DNA from: a virus
Taxonomy: Duplodnaviria > Caudoviricetes
Virus record (IMG/VR): IMGVR_UViG_3300027811_000013
Coordinates: 1 to 38,518 of that record
DNA length: 38,518 bases
Strand: one strand, 5' to 3'
Under the pieces are notes generated by a model that did not search any database, had not been told where the DNA came from, and saw nothing but the letters and a program-made list of their open reading frames with translations. Below are positions 16,050 through 36,502 of this stretch, piece by piece; the first letter of the stretch is position 1, and every line of letters begins with the position of its first letter. Position numbers and translations under genes: made by a program.

Positions 16050-17213
16050 CTACTTCAGGTCCCTCAATCTGGCACAGGTCTTCGGGAACATGTCGATGAG
16101 TTCACCGATGCCGTACCACACGCCTCTGATGAGGTGTCCGACAGCGAACATGTCGTCGCTTTCCTGGTATCCGATCGGCTGACCGAACTGGAACGCGAGA
16201 TAGTCGTTGTCCATCAGGTACACTGGCGAGATCGTGTCGTCCGTCTTGTCCACGGCGTCGCTCACGACGAACGGAAATCCGTCCCATGTGGCCATCTTGC
16301 CGCCGGTCATCTGGATGCCAGGCCCTACCTGGACTCCATCGCCAAGCGTGATCTTGAACGCCTCCATGCTGTACCTCACTTTCGCGGCCTCGAGTTCGCT
16401 TATTCGCATCAGAGAGTCAGGCCCAGTGGCATAGAACTTGTTCGCCAAGCTCGTCCAGTATGGCATGACGGCTTCCCACATGTCGTTGAGCAGCGCAACC
16501 TGCAGGTCTCTGTCCGTGCCAGAAGCAGCGTACAGTGGGTTGCTGTTGAACCATGTCTCCGTGCTCCTGTCCACGCCGTACAGATCCTCATCGCCGTCCG
16601 TGTAGCTCTCGGCGACTCTCTCAGCATCAGATGCCGTTATCCTGTGGATAGACTCGGCATTTGCGCCTGCCAGCGTGTTGAAGTTCTTGTTGATGTCGTT
16701 CTCCATCGCCCTCCAGAAGTCGGACTCCACCGTTCTCCTGTTCTGGTCAACGGCTACGCCATCTGCGATCTTCTGCAAGACTCGCAGCCTGGTCGTGTAG
16801 TCCGTCACGACCTCGAACTCCTTTGGTGTCGGGCCGATCTCGTAGTACACCGGCTCAACCGCTGTACCGAGCGCGCCGCCCTCTGCTACACCAAGCCCGC
16901 TGGTCTTGGATGCTGTCTTCACAGCCCTCCAGCCCTGTCTGCTCCAGCCCTTCTTGGGAATCGCTCCCGTGATGTTGTTCTTGGTGGCGTAGTTGGTGAT
17001 GACAGCCAGGTCGTATACGGCGTTTATCGCGCCTACATCCGCTGTCGTCAAGGCCGCCTTGGCCATCTCATCTACGGTCACCAGCTCCGTGCCGCGGCCA
17101 TCCTGCGTCGGAGACTTGAGCTCCAGCGCCTTGATGGCTCTCTCGCGGTAGTATGTTTCCAAGTCGATGCCGTCCTCATCGAAGAACGACATCAGCTCTT
17201 CCTTTCTACCCAT
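16050..17213 (-). CDS. Major capsid protein (HK97 fold)
   Basis: ~387 aa after protease/scaffold; GVAEGG E-loop-like segment, 'ATWDGFPFVVSDAV', C-terminal 'GELI..PKTCARLRDLK'. Confidence 0.85.
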   Translation of the reverse strand: MGRKEELMSFFDEDGIDLETYYRERAIKALELKSPTQDGRGTELVTVDEMAKAALTTADVGAINAVYDLAVITNYATKNNITGAIPKKGWSRQGWRAVKTASKTSGLGVAEGGALGTAVEPVYYEIGPTPKEFEVVTDYTTRLRVLQKIADGVAVDQNRRTVESDFWRAMENDINKNFNTLAGANAESIHRITASDAERVAESYTDGDEDLYGVDRSTETWFNSNPLYAASGTDRDLQVALLNDMWEAVMPYWTSLANKFYATGPDSLMRISELEAAKVRYSMEAFKITLGDGVQVGPGIQMTGGKMATWDGFPFVVSDAVDKTDDTISPVYLMDNDYLAFQFGQPIGYQESDDMFAVGHLIRGVWYGIGELIDMFPKTCARLRDLK

Positions 17214-17246
17214 GGGTTTCACCTTTTGGGTTCTCCGCTTTCTTGC

Positions 17247-23599: not shown

Positions 23600-25015
23600 T
23601 CATACGCCCTCACCTCGCATCAACGCGCCAAAGTCTACCCACACACCGCCGAACTTCTGGCCGCCTGTAGCTATCCATTCATGCACGCTCAGCTCGAGCG
23701 CGTCCAAGATGTCGTCGTGCGCTCCCCTGGGAAATTGTAGGTATTCCTCCAGGAAATCGTGCTGGCCGCGGCTCACCATTATCTTGCCGTTCTGGAAGTG
23801 CGGCGACAGGGCCAACATGCGCGTCACCTTGTCCTTCACGGTCTTGACTCCAACGATCGGCATGTTGCTCACGGCCTTGGCCGCCTGCACTATGCTCGCC
23901 TGGTAAGCGTTCTCCTCCACGAAGATCTTCTGCGCTCCCCACACGCGCTGCCACTTGGCTATCTCCTGCAGCAGCTCGGGGAAATCGACATGGCCCTTCC
24001 AGGCTTGCAGGACATAGATGTTGCCCGTCGGCTTGTCCCGCCCGCTTACCACGATCGCGCTGAAGTCGGCTGTGTTGCTCTTGCTTATCGCTGGGTCAAC
24101 ACCGAACCGTATCTCAAGCGGCTCGGGATGGTCCTCGTAGAAGTGCAGCCATTCCTCCTTGAGCAGCTCGCCGGTCAAGGGCGTTGGGTCGTTCATGTAT
24201 TCCGCGCTCCAGTAGATTGGCCCAAGGGCCATGCGTATCCGTTGCAGCGCGTCCCAAGGATAGCGCTCAGGCCACAGAACCTTATGCTCCGCCTCGTTCA
24301 GGATGGCCTGGCGCTTGAGTACCTTGAAGTCGCCGCCCTTCTGCAAGTCCGCGTACAGGTCGGCGTAATGCTTGGTCGTGCCTTGTACCAAGATCTGTCC
24401 GTCCATGTCTAGACAGTTAATCAGCTCCTTGAAGAACCAGCGCTCTATGGTCTCTCGCGTGGTCTTGCTCATGGCGTCGTCTGTGTCAAACAGGTCGTCG
24501 GCCAAGATGAGGTCGTTCTTCCTGCCGGTCACAGATCCTCCCCAGCCTTCGGCGGCCACGGTCGGGTCCTTCAGGTTCTTGGAACGCTTGACTATGATGC
24601 TGTGGCCCGCCTCCTTCATCAAGGGCGCGAGATTGAAGTCCCGCTGCAGGCCCTCGTTCAGCATAATCTCCTGCTTGATGGGACTGATGAACTCGGCGGC
24701 CAAGCTGTCGCTCTGTGTGACCACCAGGATGCGTATGTTCGGGTTCTTGCAGATGCGCCACAGCCCATAGTCCACCACCATGGTCTCCGTCTTGCCGTGC
24801 GTTCTCGGCTCTAGGATGAGCGCCCAACGATTGGCCTCGGCAAAGTCTACCATCTCCTGCTGATGCCAAGGCGTGTCCCGGTCGCGGTAGTACTTCCTGA
24901 AGAAGGCGAACGACTTGAGGGCCTTCTTCTTGTTCAGTATGGTATCAGCATCACGCAGGCCCTGGGCGGTTGCGGCATAGTGTTCGGGCTTGGCTGTCGC
25001 CTTCTTGGATGTCAT
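23600..25015 (-). CDS. terL: Terminase large subunit
   Basis: Walker A EPRTHGKT, Walker B LILADD, GTT coupling motif, nuclease FGVDPA..DFSA..HDDILDA. Confidence 0.95.
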   Translation of the reverse strand: MTSKKATAKPEHYAATAQGLRDADTILNKKKALKSFAFFRKYYRDRDTPWHQQEMVDFAEANRWALILEPRTHGKTETMVVDYGLWRICKNPNIRILVVTQSDSLAAEFISPIKQEIMLNEGLQRDFNLAPLMKEAGHSIIVKRSKNLKDPTVAAEGWGGSVTGRKNDLILADDLFDTDDAMSKTTRETIERWFFKELINCLDMDGQILVQGTTKHYADLYADLQKGGDFKVLKRQAILNEAEHKVLWPERYPWDALQRIRMALGPIYWSAEYMNDPTPLTGELLKEEWLHFYEDHPEPLEIRFGVDPAISKSNTADFSAIVVSGRDKPTGNIYVLQAWKGHVDFPELLQEIAKWQRVWGAQKIFVEENAYQASIVQAAKAVSNMPIVGVKTVKDKVTRMLALSPHFQNGKIMVSRGQHDFLEEYLQFPRGAHDDILDALELSVHEWIATGGQKFGGVWVDFGALMRGEGV

Positions 25016-25818
25016 CGACCCACCACATCCTTGAGCCACACGCGCTCATGCTGCCACGCGGGCTTACCTATGTCATGCTCGGCTTCCAGCAGGTCATCAT
25101 AGATTCCGGGCAAGGCGCGGGCGATCTTGGCCACGGTGTGCGGCTTGTGAACCGGACACCACTTGCAGCCCGACACACCGAACAGCTTGTACCCTTCGTG
25201 CATCTCGATGCCGTTCCGCATGAGGTACAGCCAAATCTCAGGCGTGGTCCAGTCCAAGATCGGGTACACCAAGGTGCAGCCTATCATTTCGTTGTCCGGC
25301 CTCGAGTATCGCCCGCCATACTTGGCCGCGCCGCGTGGCCCATAGACCACGGCCCTGTGCGCGCTGTCGAACTGTCTCACGCCCACTAGCTTGTACAGCG
25401 GCTCTTTCCCCCAGACCTTGCGGATGTACACGCGCCCAGGGCGCTGCTTGCACCATATCGAACACCAACGGTTCGCCTTGCTTGGGAAGTAGCCGTAGTA
25501 TCTGATATAGTCCACCAGGTTCACCACTTGGTCAGGGATGGTCCTGTGCTTCACGCGGTCGCGCTCAGGATGGCTAACATGCAGCCTGAGCCCGAACTCC
25601 TTGCAGCGCTCGCGCACATACGGCAGCGTGCTTGGCAGCTCGAAGCCGGCGTCCATGTACATGCACTCCACATTGTCCGTCACCTTGAGCGCCAAGAGCA
25701 GGCACACAAGGCTGTCCTTGCCGCCGCTGAAGTTGACAATCAACGGCCTGTCTCCCTGGAGATACGCCTCGGGGATGCAGCCGCGCAAGATCTGTTCACC
25801 CCAACGGGCCTTGTCCAT
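25012..25818 (-). CDS. PAPS reductase-family (PP-loop, Fe-S) protein
   Basis: VNFSGGKDS, DAGFELP, RWCSIWCK, GVRQFDSAHR, PILDWT, GCKWCP. Confidence 0.9.
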   Translation of the reverse strand: MDKARWGEQILRGCIPEAYLQGDRPLIVNFSGGKDSLVCLLLALKVTDNVECMYMDAGFELPSTLPYVRERCKEFGLRLHVSHPERDRVKHRTIPDQVVNLVDYIRYYGYFPSKANRWCSIWCKQRPGRVYIRKVWGKEPLYKLVGVRQFDSAHRAVVYGPRGAAKYGGRYSRPDNEMIGCTLVYPILDWTTPEIWLYLMRNGIEMHEGYKLFGVSGCKWCPVHKPHTVAKIARALPGIYDDLLEAEHDIGKPAWQHERVWLKDVVGR

Positions 25819-26356
25819 TGGCCTCCACCTCCAGCGTCTTGGCCTTGTCCAGGATGAACCGCTGCCATTCTTCAGGCACGCCCTCAAGCAGGTCCACCAG
25901 CACGACAGCCAAGTCCTGGCGCGTCATGTTCACTTGCACCATGCTGCCAGGTTCGGCGATAATCCCTATGCCGCCTGGCTTGAGATAGTCTAGCTGCACC
26001 TTGGCCATGCGATACAGCTGAGCGCCAATGTGGCCTATCCCCTTGAGCCGCACAGTGGCCGGCTGGTCCTTGTCATCCGCGATCGCCCGCGCTCGGTCTA
26101 CCAGATCGCCCAAGGCCATCAGGATGCGTTGCAGGGCCTCTTGCGCCGCCGCTGCACCTAGCTTGAATGCGGGGTCAGCCTTCAGCTCTGCCAAGTCTCG
26201 CGCCGCTGTGCTGTGGCTGCATTTCATCCTTGCGGCTATCTCATCCACCGTGTAGCCGCGAACCCACAGCGCCTTGACATTGAGCCGCCTGGCTACGGCC
26301 TTGTAGCTCGGCGCTCGTATTCTTTGGATGGCGCGTGTTTCTGTTTCCGGTGTCAT
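25796..26356 (-). CDS. terS: Terminase small subunit (HTH)
   Basis: N-terminal HTH GYTVDEIAARMKCSHSTAARDL, helical oligomerisation region, position upstream of terL. Confidence 0.7.
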   Translation of the reverse strand: MTPETETRAIQRIRAPSYKAVARRLNVKALWVRGYTVDEIAARMKCSHSTAARDLAELKADPAFKLGAAAAQEALQRILMALGDLVDRARAIADDKDQPATVRLKGIGHIGAQLYRMAKVQLDYLKPGGIGIIAEPGSMVQVNMTRQDLAVVLVDLLEGVPEEWQRFILDKAKTLEVEANGQGPLG

Positions 26357-26367
26357 TTTGACTCAAA

Positions 26368-26553
26368 TCAATCGACAGTCGCCGTAACCGTTGTAGGTCC
26401 AACGCCGTTGATTCCTTCAAGGTCCGCCCATGCCTTGATGTACACGACTTCGCCCGCCGGGAAGCCCTCCATCTTGGCCATGGCGATCTTGTGCGGCCTT
26501 CGCTTCAGCGCGCCTCTGCACAGCTTGAACACAAGTGTTCTGGTACTCCACAT
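26368..26553 (-). CDS. Small hypothetical protein
   Basis: AGGAGG SD before MWSTRT. Confidence 0.45.
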   Translation of the reverse strand: MWSTRTLVFKLCRGALKRRPHKIAMAKMEGFPAGEVVYIKAWADLEGINGVGPTTVTATVD

Positions 26554-26714
26554 CTCAGGTTCCTCCTGTACTTGCACTTCTTCCGAAAGTCCGGGCCGCC
26601 TATGACCAGGACTTGCATCATCTTCTCTAGCCAGTACTTCCCCCGCTTCGGCTGCTGCTTTGTCATGCCTCGCCTCCTTCTCTCTTTGGTGTCACCTTTC
26701 TCTCTTACGGCGGC

Positions 26715-27140
26715 CTACTTCATCACTCGGACAGTCATGGTCACGGTCACTTCAGCGCCGCGATCTGTCAGCGTCTTGATGACACTACCTATCAAGGCCC
26801 ACGGTTCGACCTGGTGCTGTACCTTGATATTCGCCAAGCCTTTCGATTCAGTCTTATCGGCAATGGCTTCTTCGGCCTCTTGTTCCTCTCTGAGATTCTG
26901 CCGAGAACCACGACCAAGTTCGGATTCACTTCTAGCGCCGGCGTGCATGTGTCCCGCATGCGTATGCAGCCCACGCTCAGTCCGACATCCTTTGCCACAG
27001 ATCTTGCAGACGAACATCAAGTCTCCTTCTCTCAATGGCGACAAGACGCTATGGTTCTTCATCCAATGTTCCTCGAGCTCGGCTTTGCTCGCCATTATCG
27101 CTCCACACTGTTTACACGGCCATGTTACGGGTGCTGGCAT
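26715..27140 (-). CDS. Double C2H2 zinc-finger protein
   Basis: CKQC-x12-HWMKNH and CKIC-x12-HAGHMH. Confidence 0.85.
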   Translation of the reverse strand: MPAPVTWPCKQCGAIMASKAELEEHWMKNHSVLSPLREGDLMFVCKICGKGCRTERGLHTHAGHMHAGARSESELGRGSRQNLREEQEAEEAIADKTESKGLANIKVQHQVEPWALIGSVIKTLTDRGAEVTVTMTVRVMK

Positions 27141-27151
27141 CTTCTTCCTCC

Positions 27152-27835
27152 TTACGGTAGCTCCGCGATCGGGAACACGCCCTTGAGGCCGTTCTTCACG
27201 AACACCTTATGGCTTCGTGCATGCGCCCAGCCTATCAGGTCGCGCGCCCAATCGGTTACTTCTTGCAGTTGCGCGGGCGTGTACCGGCGGCCTGTCTGCT
27301 CACCGATAACCCACATGTCCACGCGGCTTGCATCTTCCTTGTACTCATCCACGATCGTCATAGGGTCGCCAAGCAACGGCTCGGCGCTTACCCAGTACAC
27401 GCCGTCCTGCTCGCATTGAGACAACATGAACAGGCGTTGGGCTTCCTTGTCGTGCAGCGCGGCATCGAATGTCAGCGTCGTGCCTAGCCACTTCTTGTCT
27501 CCGAACCACCAGCCATAGTAGTCTGGATTCTTGGACAGGAACTGGAATGTGTGCTGCGTGCAGCGGCGCGTCACATCGAGAATCTTGTCCACGACTTCTT
27601 CTTCCATCCACTCCCCGAACAGGTCTCCCATGTCGCACACGAAGATCTTGCTGGGCTTGGTCACTTCAAACGGCTCTTTCAAGCGCTCCGGTCTGAAGGT
27701 CGGCTCGAACCTCTCCTTGTAGATGCGGTTCGCGATCGGCCGAGCGTAACAGTAGGAACAGCCGTGCTTGCAGCCCGTACATGGATTCCAGGTGAAATCC
27801 GTGTACGGTATCTTGTCCGGGCCTTGTGGGTTCAT
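27152..27835 (-). CDS. DUF5131 (phage Gp37/Gp68)-family radical-SAM-like protein
   Basis: TWNPCTGCKHGCSYCYA, IFVCDMGDLF, HTFQFLSK, SAEPLLG. Confidence 0.9.
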   Translation of the reverse strand: MNPQGPDKIPYTDFTWNPCTGCKHGCSYCYARPIANRIYKERFEPTFRPERLKEPFEVTKPSKIFVCDMGDLFGEWMEEEVVDKILDVTRRCTQHTFQFLSKNPDYYGWWFGDKKWLGTTLTFDAALHDKEAQRLFMLSQCEQDGVYWVSAEPLLGDPMTIVDEYKEDASRVDMWVIGEQTGRRYTPAQLQEVTDWARDLIGWAHARSHKVFVKNGLKGVFPIAELP

Positions 27836-27987
27836 CGTTTCTTAACCTCCGGGCGCGGTTTCCCGTAACTGCACCACCAATCTTGGTCTGTCTGAACTTC
27901 AATCCTCGTGACGGCTTTTCGGATGACACAACCTTCATCAGCGTACGCACATCGGTCACACGATTCGGGATACGCCCTGTCGTTCAT
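27832..27987 (-). CDS. Small Cys4 protein (51 aa, not in ORF track)
   Basis: MNDRAYPESCDRCAYADEGCVIRK..WWCSYGKP; ATGA overlaps at both ends; GGAGG SD. Confidence 0.6.
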   Translation of the reverse strand: MNDRAYPESCDRCAYADEGCVIRKAVTRIEVQTDQDWWCSYGKPRPEVKKR

Positions 27988-28112
27988 TTATCCGCCTCCA
28001 CCACACGCTGAAAATGCGCCCATCCTTGAACGGAATACGCCCAGCGCGCTCCGCATTCCTGGCATTCGATTTTGTCCCCCTTATCCAATAATTGTGCATG
28101 CTCGCATGTCAC
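27984..28112 (-). CDS. Small Zn-ribbon protein (42 aa, not in ORF track)
   Basis: MTCEHAQLLDKGDKIECQECGARW..; GTGA overlap; GAGGAGG SD. Confidence 0.55.
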   Translation of the reverse strand: MTCEHAQLLDKGDKIECQECGARWAYSVQGWAHFQRVVEADK

Positions 28113-29362
28113 TTGTCTGCCTCCTCATTGTACTTGTAGATGATGTTCCCTTCAGCGTCCAGCCGATCGGGCACTAGAACATAACCGTACAGGCGTACCA
28201 GGCCGCGGCCCGTGTTCGGCTGATTCCAGTTGTACTCGAACCAGTCCGCTGCTGTCGCCCGCCGGTATCGCGCCCGCCAGAGACTTCTGTGGCTATTGTA
28301 GCCTTCGCCGCGCATCATCAGGAAGTGCGTGAAGAACCTGTCCACCTCGGGCTTGATGTCGGCATAGCATGTTTCGCCCTTGGCCTTGGCGCACAAGATC
28401 GCTTGGCCAAAGTGGCCCGTGTAGCTGTTCCACTCAGGCGGAACACCACAGCAGTTCACGCTGTCATTCATCTCACGGCAGAACGAGTCGCTCACATAAA
28501 AACGCATGCCCAGGTCGTGCGTGTAATCGCGCATGGCCTTGAACACGGGCAACTTGATTTCCCGGTTCAGCCGCTTGTACGCCGCCTGCTGGCTGTGCTT
28601 GTGGTAGAATGTCCACACATCGAACCCGACCAGCTTGCTGATTTCGTCATAGCGTTTTCTCAACGGCGCATCGGCGCGCTGGTCCATGCACCAGAACTCT
28701 GTGCTCACACTGTCCGCGCCCTGGCGCTTGGCTTCCTTGATTGTCTCGCGCCAATCTTCGCTGAGGCCAATCATGTACGGCCTCAGTCTCAAGGTAACAT
28801 GTAGACCGCGGGCCGTGAGCCGCCCGATCATGTCCATGCGTTCCTGCGGGCTAGCTACCCCGCGCTCCATCTTCTTGGCCATGTCAGCGTTCATGGTGAT
28901 GATGCTTACCTTGGTGTGCCAGTTGTGCTTATGGCGGGCCATCAGAGACATGTACCGAGGATCTTGTGTCCACCAGGTTCCCTTGGTGCTGAATGACAGC
29001 GGATAGTCGATGCCGTCGAAGAACCGCAACAGCTCAAGGCTCTTGCCAAATCGCTTTTCATAGTTGTCGAATGGGTCAGCCAACGCTCCCCATTGCATGA
29101 TTTTTCTGGCCTTCACATACGGCAGGAACTGGCTGTGGCTGCCGTGTGGCGCGCCCAGGAACAGGCTTTTCAGTTTCTCCACGCTCGAGCATTTCACCTT
29201 GAACCCGCCAGCCTTGAGCCCGCCCAGCGTGTGAATCTTCTGATAGAGCGCGAAGCAGTAGAGGCAGCCATAGGAACAGTAGTTGTAAGTGTCAAAGGAC
29301 ATGGGCATGCTGCAATCGAGGATCTCACTCGTCCACCTGGGCGACTGGTAGTTATCGCTCAT
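28109..29362 (-). CDS. Radical SAM protein, spore-photoproduct-lyase-like
   Basis: FDTYNYCSYGCLYCFA (CxxxCxxC), ADPFD..E, FSTKG, LRLRPY, late CCG. Confidence 0.88.
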   Translation of the reverse strand: MSDNYQSPRWTSEILDCSMPMSFDTYNYCSYGCLYCFALYQKIHTLGGLKAGGFKVKCSSVEKLKSLFLGAPHGSHSQFLPYVKARKIMQWGALADPFDNYEKRFGKSLELLRFFDGIDYPLSFSTKGTWWTQDPRYMSLMARHKHNWHTKVSIITMNADMAKKMERGVASPQERMDMIGRLTARGLHVTLRLRPYMIGLSEDWRETIKEAKRQGADSVSTEFWCMDQRADAPLRKRYDEISKLVGFDVWTFYHKHSQQAAYKRLNREIKLPVFKAMRDYTHDLGMRFYVSDSFCREMNDSVNCCGVPPEWNSYTGHFGQAILCAKAKGETCYADIKPEVDRFFTHFLMMRGEGYNSHRSLWRARYRRATAADWFEYNWNQPNTGRGLVRLYGYVLVPDRLDAEGNIIYKYNEEADK

Positions 29363-30263
29363 GGAATCGTTCCTCAGCAATCGCTCTCGTGGCTATCAAC
29401 TCAGTCCATGTCATGGCCGGATACCTGGGCAACAATCCCTTGCGCCCTCCACCGTTGAAATCACAGTATCGACACAGCCCGAAATCGCGCCGGCCTTCTG
29501 CGAGCATACGCCGTGCGGCATTCAGGACGGGATGGTTCTCCCAGAACATGGCCACATTGCCGCGCGAGATGTTCCACAGTTCTTGCTGAGCGTTGTAGTC
29601 CATGCAGCACAAGTGAATCGAGCCGTCCCAATGGATGACCAACTCTCTGAACGGGTTCACACATATCTTAGACAGCGGCTTGTCCAACGGCTTGATGCCG
29701 TACATCTTCGCGGCGGCCCAATCCACATTGCCCGCATGATTCTGAAGAGTCCTGTTCTTCTTCTCTCCCGATCGCCGGCCAATGTCATCGAGCAAGATAA
29801 GCGCCCTGGTCTTTGGCCCGTGTCGATGCCACGGATTGAAGTCGCTCGCATAGAAATCCATCGGCTTGAATCCAGCCTCTGTGAAAGTCCGCATGCGGCG
29901 TTCCAGCGTGCCCTTGCCATAGCAATCGACCAAGAGAACATTTCCACCGGCCCGCCAGAAGTAGTCCACATCCCAGGTACTCAGTTTAGTGCCGTTGGTC
30001 GTCATCATGATGCTGCTCTTTGGCAAATAGCTACGCAACACGCACAAGGATGTTGCCCATTCCCCGTGCAACATAGGTTCACCACGCAAAGCCAACTCGA
30101 TTCTGGTAGGATCGTATCCAGCGTGTTGTAGTTCGCGCCCAATCGCGATGACCGTGCGCAGCGACATGAAATCATAACCTGGCGGCATGGTCCTAGTGCC
30201 ACAGAATCCACATGCCAAGTTGCAGCCTCGCACTAGCTCGATTTGACATGACCAGGGCTTCAT
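29352..30263 (-). CDS. Radical SAM protein with SPASM/twitch domain
   Basis: GCNLACGFC, GEPMLH, TTNG; CVNPF..DGSIHLCCMD..CRYC. Confidence 0.9.
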   Translation of the reverse strand: MKPWSCQIELVRGCNLACGFCGTRTMPPGYDFMSLRTVIAIGRELQHAGYDPTRIELALRGEPMLHGEWATSLCVLRSYLPKSSIMMTTNGTKLSTWDVDYFWRAGGNVLLVDCYGKGTLERRMRTFTEAGFKPMDFYASDFNPWHRHGPKTRALILLDDIGRRSGEKKNRTLQNHAGNVDWAAAKMYGIKPLDKPLSKICVNPFRELVIHWDGSIHLCCMDYNAQQELWNISRGNVAMFWENHPVLNAARRMLAEGRRDFGLCRYCDFNGGGRKGLLPRYPAMTWTELIATRAIAEERFHER

Positions 30264-31018
30264 CTCTTGTCCACCAGCTTGATTTCAAAGTGCTTCTTAC
30301 GCGCCCTGTTCACCGTGCAAAACTGTGGGTACTTCTTGAGCAGGTACAGGGCCGAGCGCTTCACGCGGTCTTCCGTGCGCGTTTCTTGCATGCCGCCTGG
30401 TTCGGTGTAGTATGCCGTCTCCACGCAGATGTCCTCAAGCCGAACCAACTTGCCGAACCGTTGGTAGTACTTGATGCTCCGCTCGAAGTCCTCCTTGTCG
30501 TCAAGGGTCACATAGAGGCCGCGGTCATGTGTGTTTATCACGCCGAAGAACGCGCCGACTATGTAGGCGATCTTCGTCCGCACACCGCCGCGCATGAAAT
30601 ACGGGTTCTTCACCGGATAGACTCCCCACAGCCGCGTACCTGTCTGGACGCACAGTTCAAACCCATGTTCGATGACAGCCTTCAGTTCGTCCCCGATCGC
30701 CATAAGGCCGCCGTTATCCTTGGTTAGATTGTAGATGCCTTTCAGATCGTCGTCCATCTCTACCAGGAACTCGCCCTCGCGGTAGTAATCGCTGATGGCG
30801 TTCCTTACCGCGCCCATGCCATGAGCATCCACCATCTTGCAGCGGTTCGCCCAGTGATTGGGCAAGACCCTGTCGTATGCCGAGAGCTCGGCCTCCCCTG
30901 ACAGGAATATGCTCACGCTGCTCTTGAGAATGTTCGCATCCTCTAGCAGCGTTAGCGTGTGCGACAGCAGCGTGTTCGCCCGCTTGTAGCTCGGTATGGC
31001 TATCTTGAACGGTATCAT
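30260..31018 (-). CDS. GT-A glycosyltransferase of TET-associated/GREB1-like type
   Basis: IAIPSYKRA, G..RN.I, EMDDD (DxD), KEDFER, PGGMQ. Confidence 0.82.
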   Translation of the reverse strand: MIPFKIAIPSYKRANTLLSHTLTLLEDANILKSSVSIFLSGEAELSAYDRVLPNHWANRCKMVDAHGMGAVRNAISDYYREGEFLVEMDDDLKGIYNLTKDNGGLMAIGDELKAVIEHGFELCVQTGTRLWGVYPVKNPYFMRGGVRTKIAYIVGAFFGVINTHDRGLYVTLDDKEDFERSIKYYQRFGKLVRLEDICVETAYYTEPGGMQETRTEDRVKRSALYLLKKYPQFCTVNRARKKHFEIKLVDKR

Positions 31019-31152
31019 GATGCCACTTGTCCTTGCCTGACCTGGAACTGAGTGCCACAGACCTTGCATATAGCCATGAGACCTCCGATTGGCAGGATGG
31101 CTGGTATGTCTATCTTCGATTCTGTGCCGCATCCGGGACACTTGATTTGCAT
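31015..31152 (-). CDS. Zn-ribbon protein
   Basis: MQIKCPGCG..CKVCGTQFQV; ATGA overlap with glycosyltransferase. Confidence 0.7.
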   Translation of the reverse strand: MQIKCPGCGTESKIDIPAILPIGGLMAICKVCGTQFQVRQGQVAS

Positions 31153-31154
31153 GC

Positions 31155-31733
31155 TCAGCCCAGGTCCAGTATCATCGTCCGGGCCGTCTCCTTCATGCGC
31201 TCGGTCAAATCCAGCCTCTTGAGCCAATCGTTGGCCTTCTCGCGAGTGCTGAATGTGACATAGACGACATACGATTCCGCGCTGGCGGCTACATCTTCGT
31301 CCAGGGCCAAGTCGGCCAGGTCGGGCGGCTCTATGCTCGCGCCCTTGAGCAGCACGGCGATCTCGTCTGCGTCAAAGCCCGTCACCAGGCGGTCCTCGTC
31401 ATCAAGGGCCTCAAGCACGCTCGGCAACTTGGCATAGTCCCAGTCGCCCACGATCTTGTTCAGGGCCAGGTTCAGCGCCTTTTCCTTCTTCTCACTTAGG
31501 CGTACCACGCTGACCTCGACTTCCTTCTTCCCCTGAGCCTTGAGGATCTTCAGGCGCTGATGCCCGCCTATCACATGGCCGGTTTTCTCGTTCCACACGA
31601 TCGGCTCAACCATGTCGAACTCGTCTATGCTGCGTTTCAATTTCTCGTACTGCGGGTCGCCTTCCTTCAGGTCCAGCCTGGGATTCCAATCAGCTGGAAT
31701 CAGGTCCTTGATTTTCTTCTTCACTATCTCCAC
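31155..31733 (-). CDS. ParB/Srx N-terminal domain protein
   Basis: LIPADWNPR..LKRSIDEF..EPIVWN..IGGHQRL..LNLALNKI.GDWD. Confidence 0.92.
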   Translation of the reverse strand: MEIVKKKIKDLIPADWNPRLDLKEGDPQYEKLKRSIDEFDMVEPIVWNEKTGHVIGGHQRLKILKAQGKKEVEVSVVRLSEKKEKALNLALNKIVGDWDYAKLPSVLEALDDEDRLVTGFDADEIAVLLKGASIEPPDLADLALDEDVAASAESYVVYVTFSTREKANDWLKRLDLTERMKETARTMILDLG

Positions 31734-36136: not shown

Positions 36137-36502
36137 CTAAATACCGTCCCGCATGCCGCGCATGATGCGCGCTGCTCTATCCATCAGACACAGAGCTTCC
36201 TGAATCTGTCTCTGCGCGCCTTTGCTCACGGTGCGCTTGTAGCCGTTCTTGAAATACACTTTGCGCCGGACTTGCCCGCCGTTTATCCGGCCCAGGCGCA
36301 TGGTCACTTCACCGGCGTAATACATCTTTTTCAGTTCGACAGCGGCATGGGCTCGATGGATGCCAACGCCTTCCGCGACACCGTCCTGCGTGTTCTCATG
36401 CTTGGCCAGGTATTTGTCTTTCTCCGGGTACTTGGCCAAGTGCACCAAGATGCGCTCCCGCACAGTCATTGGTTCAAGGCTTGTTGTCTGTTCTGGATTC
36501 AT
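36137..36502 (-). CDS. Winged-helix DNA-binding protein
   Basis: TVRERILVHL..TQDGVAEGVGIHRAHAAVELKKM..GEV..RRKVYF. Confidence 0.8.
   Translation of the reverse strand: MNPEQTTSLEPMTVRERILVHLAKYPEKDKYLAKHENTQDGVAEGVGIHRAHAAVELKKMYYAGEVTMRLGRINGGQVRRKVYFKNGYKRTVSKGAQRQIQEALCLMDRAARIMRGMRDGI

Follow-up and report, generated by a model that had tools for sequence, protein, structure and literature searches.

Hydroxymethyl-pyrimidines in DNA are known to arise by two routes, through thymidylate synthase (TS)-family enzymes before replication and through O2-dependent TET/JBP dioxygenases after it. ParB-dependent thymine dioxygenases produce 5-hydroxymethyluracil (5hmU), with GATases, P-loop kinases and AADTs as linked partners; no stable complex of the ParB-dioxygenase pair was seen (O'Toole et al. 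2026, PMC13229309). A kinase and an AADT act on 5-hydroxymethyldeoxyuridine (5-hmdU) in DNA (PMC8989533), and glycosyltransferases (GTs) of the TAGT type need a hydroxymethyl acceptor from 5mYOX or ThyS (Pyle, bioRxiv 10.1101/2023.12.21.572611). Spore photoproduct lyase (SPL) is a radical S-adenosylmethionine (SAM) enzyme whose substrates are thymines in DNA. It flips these bases, and its reaction includes an allylic radical of thymine, which is caught as an adduct in enzyme lacking the H-donor Cys140 (PMC3467042). Here we analyse a gene run in a tailed-virus genome, IMG/VR record IMGVR_UViG_3300027811_000013 (38,518 nt, the whole stretch being called the window), in which the gene of a radical SAM enzyme with the SPL fold is coupled with those of a ParB-like protein and a GT. 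Every assigned gene of the window lies on the minus strand.

The cluster probably serves post-replicative thymine hypermodification with a new entry chemistry. By analogy with described clusters, we consider it probable that the SPL-fold enzyme makes 5hmU without O2, that the GT glycosylates it and that a second, BtrN-like radical SAM enzyme of the SPASM type tailors the sugar. The SPL-fold enzyme is read as the 5hmU maker because it is common to two exclusive branches that need 5hmU (GT; kinase/ADDT), because the genomes are without both known 5hmU sources, and because its slot adjoins the same kind of ParB as the thymine dioxygenases. An earlier note on this DNA had proposed that Fe-S radical chemistry replaces the dioxygenase or else tailors the attached sugar. 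Comparative genomics strongly backs the replacement, which can be assigned to the SPL-fold enzyme, whereas the share given to a DUF5131 protein and a PAPS-reductase-family protein found no support; the sugar-tailoring alternative fits the SPASM enzyme.

The SPL-fold radical SAM enzyme and its neighbourhood

SPL was the top match in the PDB for the AF2 model of the enzyme (pLDDT 91.7; Foldseek E 2e-7; VIA-align Z 18.3, vs 15.3 for the next), with Z 18 and a root-mean-square deviation of 2.9 Å over ~255 residues (PDB 4fhc-4fhg; PMC3467042). The CxxxCxxC cysteines stand at positions 29, 33 and 36, and four further cysteines (17, 225, 304 and 305) are kept in 89–95 of 95 sequences. The window enzyme differs from SPL in being only 13–16% identical to it, in these four extra conserved cysteines and ~125 extra C-terminal residues, and in sitting in a modification rather than a repair context. 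Motif and fold are both present, whereas no SPL match was found at sequence level by phmmer and hmmsearch of the PDB or with NCBIfam and Pfam, and PDB sequence searches with the protein or its profile gave nothing useful. The best family model was that of the PA0069 family, at 62 bits against a cut-off of 360. A search at E≤1e-20 brought up relatives in 1,395 protein clusters, the best 119 of them 51–56% identical, and tblastn against 50,697 GenBank phage records returned one weak 21% match only. Together with ParB, this enzyme is the conserved core of the system, with a predicted function as an O2-independent thymine-methyl hydroxylase.

Its neighbourhood was surveyed in 223 fetched loci, clustered at 85% identity into 84, one of which is the window virus, leaving 83. 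Neighbour clusters were named by Pfam and counted with local hidden Markov models (HMMs) built from the same loci. ParB lay near the enzyme in 70/83 clusters and in all 53 loci with at least 4 kb upstream. TAGT was found in 33/83 clusters and ADDT in another 33 (29 with a P-loop kinase); TAGT never occurred together with ADDT, nor with the kinase (0/83 each). The 53 longer loci divided into 24 with TAGT, 23 with ADDT and kinase, and six with neither. Among loci without either transferase, some held ParB and the radical SAM enzyme alone and others only a kinase, a GNAT protein or a GT-B, and a pure tailoring role would not explain the enzyme in loci that hold just ParB beside it or add no more than a kinase. 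In the Selenomonas ruminantium S137 prophage (L136) the genes are ParB, ParB, kinase and radical SAM enzyme. TET was absent from the neighbourhood in all 83 clusters and all 223 raw loci. Other neighbours were GNAT (25 of 83), SPASM (9), SAM synthetase (8), GATase (4) and PIG-L (3), and passenger-type neighbours were DUF5131 (4) and PAPS (2). Among the neighbour clusters of these loci, none that is conserved, other than the radical SAM enzyme itself, is a candidate entry enzyme. What is conserved among these loci is the pair of ParB and the SPL-fold enzyme.

Whole records of 39 viruses carrying the enzyme (16 of them at least 90% complete; some near-duplicates, and so not all independent) held no Tet_JBP and no TS-family gene (0/39 each), and a C5 methylase in three. 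On a 66-row tree of the enzyme the partner label, GT or ADDT, switches 17 times (shuffled mean 22), and ten of these switches are forced by strongly supported branches; the tree was a quick IQ-TREE run with SH-aLRT support only, and 18 of the 84 rows were omitted (4 short, 14 without either partner). The sister of the window enzyme (L059, 55% identical) belongs to a related virus, G004, with a ParB-kinase-ADDT arrangement in which kinase and ADDT lie between ParB and the radical SAM gene. Identities between G004 and the window are 53% for the resolvase, 44% for the phosphoesterase, 52% for ParB and 55% for the radical SAM enzyme, and G004 gave no PAPS or DUF5131 match. The titles of 54 cellular loci were mostly those of anaerobic gut or digester lineages.

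Varied tailoring genes were observed beside the same enzyme in L112 (5232-9600), L205, L220, L222, L265, L073, L089 and L010, comprising a pyridoxal-phosphate enzyme with a second radical SAM protein, a sulfotransferase, an epimerase, PIG-L, WbqC, UDP-glucose dehydrogenase, nucleotidyltransferases and APH kinases; such variety makes many distinct bases likely. In L258 the enzyme is surrounded by four ParB-like genes, and no transferase was recognised there.

Partner enzymes and proposed pathway

The window ParB consists, as read from its sequence, of a nucleotide-binding domain, an acidic linker and a short C-terminal domain, with no HTH. It aligns end to end with the TET-adjacent ParBs of L013 (31%) and L292 (24%), and likewise with ParBs adjacent to the radical SAM enzyme (23–54%). 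By analogy, it is predicted to be an activator of the entry enzyme.

The GT carries both marks of TAGT membership, a profile match above the cut-off and the acidic DDD motif, and shares 48% identity with the GT of L013, a ParB-TET-PIG-L-GT locus, across 249 aa. Of 40 loci of its relatives, 30 carry TET/JBP, some in the order ParB-TET-GT-terminase, and one carries the SPL-fold enzyme. TET-associated GT-A enzymes reportedly glycosylate hydroxymethylcytosine (hmC) and 5hmU (Burke 2021, PMC8256090). From its TET-adjacent relatives, the window GT is predicted to glycosylate a hydroxymethyl base in DNA.

The model of the SPASM enzyme (pLDDT 75) had BtrN as its top PDB match (E 3e-13, 17% identity), and the protein combines a radical SAM core, a Twitch/SPASM domain and a BtrN-like fold. 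BtrN-type Twitch radical SAM dehydrogenases oxidise a sugar or a cyclitol. A survey anchored on this enzyme covered 79 loci in 57 clusters, of which 41 had an adjacent TAGT, 18 the SPL-fold enzyme, 5 TET and 2 ADDT; seen from the SPL-fold loci, SPASM occurred in 7/33 of the GT branch and 0/33 of the ADDT branch. Among the 45 whole records searched for these 57 clusters, TS-family genes were present in 20/29 with neither TET nor the SPL-fold enzyme nearby, vs 2/16 with the latter (5/5 vs 0/5 among records at least 90% complete), and TET was present in 2/45, both also with the SPL-fold enzyme. Given this distribution of TS-family, radical SAM and TET genes, the three entry routes look complementary, and since the SPASM enzyme tracks the sugar branch under all three, it is best read as a tailoring enzyme. 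Its modelled fold agrees with a predicted sugar-tailoring dehydrogenase or epimerase.

The proposed pathway would begin with ParB activating or priming the entry enzyme, in the way shown for phage thymine dioxygenases. The substrate would be thymine in replicated DNA. The base would be flipped into the SPL-like barrel, where the 5'-deoxyadenosyl radical would abstract hydrogen from the thymine methyl group. One-electron oxidation of the resulting allylic radical would follow, with a second metal site, held by the four extra cysteines, as a possible acceptor; the oxidised intermediate would be captured by water, at a cost of one SAM per turn. The GT would then add a sugar from a host nucleoside-diphosphate sugar, so that before packaging some sites would carry a nucleotide resembling base J, and the Twitch/SPASM enzyme would oxidise or epimerise the attached sugar.

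A wider claim, which we judge to be finely balanced between true and false, is that this radical SAM family (>1,000 sequence clusters) is a third, O2-free route to 5hmU that works directly on DNA and takes its oxygen from water, and so an anaerobic equivalent of TET/JBP, that the virus possibly belongs to a Thermoplasmatota archaeon, that its product is a glycoside of thymine not yet described, in which a radical enzyme has oxidised the sugar, and that some phages keep an aerobic and an anaerobic enzyme, each with its own ParB. Concerning the host, the predicted structure of a winged-helix-turn-helix protein (window 36137-36502, minus strand) was nearest to Thermoplasmatota clusters (9/10 rows, TM ~0.6), a weak lead to an archaeal host. 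Searches for this protein in 251 genomes and for the probable capsid protein in 401 genomes gave no match, and are uninformative, as the sample was perhaps not mainly Thermoplasmatota.

Viral genome and the complete gene run

The IMG/VR record is classified as linear and 36% complete (CheckV). Direct circular closure of the window was tried and rejected, as the record ends do not join, and no terminal repeat was found in the window. Locus L186 continues 399 nt beyond the right end, and this extension holds short open reading frames (ORFs) only. In run X1, unitigs of 298 nt (depth 19) and 325 nt (depth 27.4) were found at the left end and at the right end or its extension; matched between the ends by length and depth, not by letters, they are common to both, which implies a circle with ~230–600 nt missing. 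Very likely no more than 0.6 kb of the genome is missing. The earlier note had called it apparently complete, which the record itself contradicts and the near-complete circle favours. A hidden dioxygenase or hydroxymethylase is unlikely, because the known missing part holds short ORFs only. Profiles for Tet_JBP, Thymidylat_synt, DNA_methylase, ADDT and HMUDK had no match in the record at E≤1, in agreement with the same note, which had seen no TET/JBP, cytosine methylase or TS-like gene; as a positive control, the PF12851 (Tet_JBP) search detected its target in 10/10 chosen records, 5 of them already known TET carriers.

The circle can be closed by two alternative paths of ~230 and ~600 nt (junction of the window ends; L186 1-400), and one of them bears small zinc-ribbon ORFs and a membrane peptide, a population variation at the junction. 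A non-coding simple-repeat stretch lies at 1938-2017, and read mapping skips it. The probable major capsid protein (16050-17222, minus strand) has no Pfam match, and none of its 32 relatives is informatively named; the virus lineage therefore looks unclassified, and the CheckV estimate may be unreliable.

Table 1. Genes of the run from ParB to the large terminase, with window coordinates.
Feature	Position	Strand	Evidence and remarks
ParB-like protein	31155..31733	-	192 aa; PHROG 620 E 2e-42; Pfam ParB_N below cut-off
Zinc ribbon, 45 aa	31015..31152	-	Pfam Zn_ribbon_4
GT-A glycosyltransferase, TAGT family	30260..31018	-	PF20691 43.4 bits vs cut-off 27.5; IPSYKR and DDD motifs
Twitch/SPASM radical SAM enzyme	29352..30263	-	Pfam Radical_SAM and SPASM, both above cut-off
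SPL-fold radical SAM enzyme, 417 aa	28109..29362	-	CxxxCxxC; AF2 model resembles spore photoproduct lyase
Cys peptide, 42 aa	27984..28112	-	coupled at both ends; not conserved
Cys peptide, 51 aa	27832..27987	-	coupled at both ends; not conserved
DUF5131, radical-SAM-like	27152..27835	-	CxxxCxxC; PF07505 E 5e-28, above cut-off
C2H2 zinc-finger protein	26715..27140	-	between DUF5131 and terS
HTH protein, probable small terminase (terS)	25796..26356	-	HTH matches; terS identity inferred from position before terL
PAPS-reductase-family PP-loop protein	25012..25818	-	PF01507 over Pfam cut-off; between terS and terL
Large terminase (terL)	23600..25015	-	PHROG 38 E 5e-102

All genes named in the earlier note were recovered (Table 1). 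From ParB to DUF5131 they are tightly coupled, with intergenic gaps of +2, -4, -4, -11, -4, -4 and -4 nt. The run had also been described as leading into terS; here three unmentioned genes intervene, the C2H2 zinc finger and two small ORFs, with gaps of 11–48 nt. The PAPS-reductase gene is coupled to both terS and terL. The Radical_SAM match of the SPL-fold gene is below the Pfam cut-off and clear in PHROG and NCBIfam, and tblastn found no relatives of the 45-aa zinc ribbon in the other fetched loci.

The PAPS-family protein forms its own clade with 45 relatives at 35–73% identity, and has a PP-loop, three invariant cysteines and weak DndC, SspD and BrxP matches. Against the DndC model it reached 37 bits (cut-off 290), scoring closer to the archaeal PRK13795 and PRK08557 models. 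General Pfam scans of the 57 window ORFs showed no partner Dnd or Ssp genes, and PADLOC covered 7 proteins. Single-sequence searches of viral contigs for relatives of the SPASM and PAPS proteins returned only a near-identical copy, and alignments were needed; the PAPS alignment search gave one 35% relative and otherwise distant ones, so that the 61 phage loci obtained represent distant relatives. None of these 61 carried the SPL-fold enzyme, TAGT, ADDT or TET. With DUF5131 near the SPL-fold enzyme in 4/83 clusters and PAPS in 2/83, the membership of both in the pathway, as the earlier note had it, was not borne out, and both are probably passengers. Neither they nor the zinc ribbon and the Cys peptides are placed in the core, because none tracks with ParB and the radical SAM enzyme. 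The PAPS-reductase gene is probably a separate module and may represent a second one.

The distant phage PAPS genes (L367-L412) were flanked by ParB in 37/61 loci and by GATase in 5/61, which suggests another ParB-linked modification cassette.

Competing explanations and comparison with known systems

Several points weigh against 5hmU formation by the SPL-fold enzyme. We infer the base, the sugar and the oxygen source by analogy, the HMMs behind the neighbour counts are not independent of the surveyed loci, the titles of cellular loci are those of bins and not of proven hosts, and the samples carrying the virus are soil metagenomes (no RNA dataset among them). L292 (1762-6981) and L293 carry the order ParB-TET-ParB-radical SAM-GT-SPASM, showing that TET and the radical SAM enzyme are not strictly exclusive; the L292 radical SAM enzyme looks intact, and the tandem may represent an aerobic and an anaerobic enzyme with separate ParBs, or the radical SAM enzyme may work downstream of TET. 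G054 and G058, whose radical SAM enzymes are more distant, hold a short TS-family gene (257–271 aa), and 2 of the 11 radical SAM records tested carry ThyX. The SPL-like phage enzyme M6 gp53 is a downstream isomerase and not an entry enzyme (PMC8989533). Restriction-type sites also remain under avoidance, with 4 ACGT sites in the window vs ~108 expected, and TGATC, GGCGCC, ATCGAT, GGGCCC and CGGCCG nearly absent; G004 is without GATC and avoids ACGT, and most relatives avoid restriction-type sites. As these are still avoided, any modification is not blanket protection and is probably partial or sequence-specific.

An entry enzyme with other chemistry would act on cytosine or host 5-methylcytosine (5mC), add a SAM-derived one-carbon unit or hydroxylate the ring, yielding hmC or a hydroxy-pyrimidine. 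The gene context demands a hydroxyl acceptor without specifying the base, SAM synthetase is near the enzyme in 8/83 loci, a C5 methylase occurs in 3/39 records, and glycosylated 5-hydroxycytosine occurs in phages (PMC13326640). We nevertheless find this explanation unlikely, since the kinase/ADDT branch was characterised on 5hmU (PMC8989533), ParB-linked dioxygenases are T-specific in vivo (PMC13229309), the closest fold, SPL, handles thymine, and a C5 methylase is missing from the other 36 records. Less credence is given to a downstream tailoring or rearranging role, with the hydroxymethyl base supplied by the host or an unrecognised viral gene. M6 gp53, SPL-like and an isomerase of N-glycinyl-thymine, is a precedent, and L292 and L293 also carry TET; but over at least 10 switches of partner a single enzyme would need to process sugar adducts as well as amino-acid adducts, some loci join it just to ParB or add no more than a kinase, the conserved neighbour clusters offer no other candidate for the entry step, and in the 50,697 GenBank phage records tblastn detected a single weak match (21%).

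It is very improbable that all coupled genes, including DUF5131 and the PAPS protein, form one pathway to a sulfur-containing or multiply tailored nucleotide. Their physical coupling, with DUF5131 in the same run and PAPS joined to terS and terL, the PP-loop, three invariant cysteines and weak DndC/SspD/BrxP matches, and ParB beside 37/61 distant phage relatives are offset by the scarcity of PAPS (2/83) and DUF5131 (4/83) near the enzyme, by their absence from G004, and by the 0/61 distant PAPS loci with the SPL-fold enzyme, TAGT, ADDT or TET. A lineage-specific PAPS link may exist within the close clade (45 proteins). Small molecules or proteins are frequent targets of GT-A and Twitch enzymes, and the automatic Atlas name of one cluster is 'putative DNA repair photolyase'; a cassette aimed at a non-DNA target (virion proteins, a small molecule), or a repair gene of photolyase type, is nonetheless hardly to be expected where TAGT, ADDT and Ploopntkinase3/HMUDK, all DNA-specific families, accompany the enzyme next to ParB and terminase and identity to SPL is 13–16%.

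If 5hmU formation by the radical SAM enzyme is correct, it would amount to a new kind of enzyme chemistry on DNA. The route would then explain how DNA is hypermodified in small phages whose anaerobic hosts live in gut, rumen and sediment, would suggest that many modified bases are still unseen, and could offer an O2- and 2-oxoglutarate (2OG)-independent tool to oxidise T or 5mC. No radical SAM entry enzyme was reported in the literature searched, most subscription papers being outside its coverage, nor in the accessible portions of PMC13229309, PMC8989533, PMC5889632, PMC13458397, PMC13326640, PMC10853773 and the Pyle preprint; the main text and 12 supplementary files of PMC13229309 gave no match to 'radical'.

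Among described systems, YhcC/MnmL (PMC13228596) is alike in that, when oxygen is lacking, a radical SAM enzyme takes over a nucleic-acid base modification from an O2-dependent oxidase, and differs in its tRNA substrate and reaction. The phage M6 glycinyl-thymine isomerase gp53 (Lee et al., PMC8989533) is likewise an SPL-like radical SAM enzyme in a thymine hypermodification cluster. It acts after a dUMP hydroxymethylase, a kinase and an AADT, a set not found in the window genome, whereas the window family is without a TS-family gene in 39/39 records and accompanies GTs as often as AADTs; tblastn of GenBank phages gave no gp53-like match, in a collection where the presence of M6 was not confirmed. 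TET-associated GT-A glycosylation (Pyle preprint; base J per PMC13229309) shares a GT of the TAGT family, the window GT having 48% identity to a TET-adjacent one, and differs in that the window has no 5mYOX or ThyS acceptor source and adds a BtrN-like radical SAM enzyme. The ParB-dependent T-dioxygenase cluster (5mYOX clade C1, TET/JBP; PMC13229309) shares a ParB with nucleotide-binding and C-terminal domains and no DNA-binding domain, a position near the terminase with GT or kinase/AADT/GATase partners and no adjacent C5 methylase, and a predicted post-replicative conversion of T to 5hmU. The window has this ParB type and the downstream GT without a C5 methylase; the TET/JBP gene is missing, and in place of the Fe(II)/2OG dioxygenase stands the SPL-fold [4Fe-4S] radical SAM enzyme.

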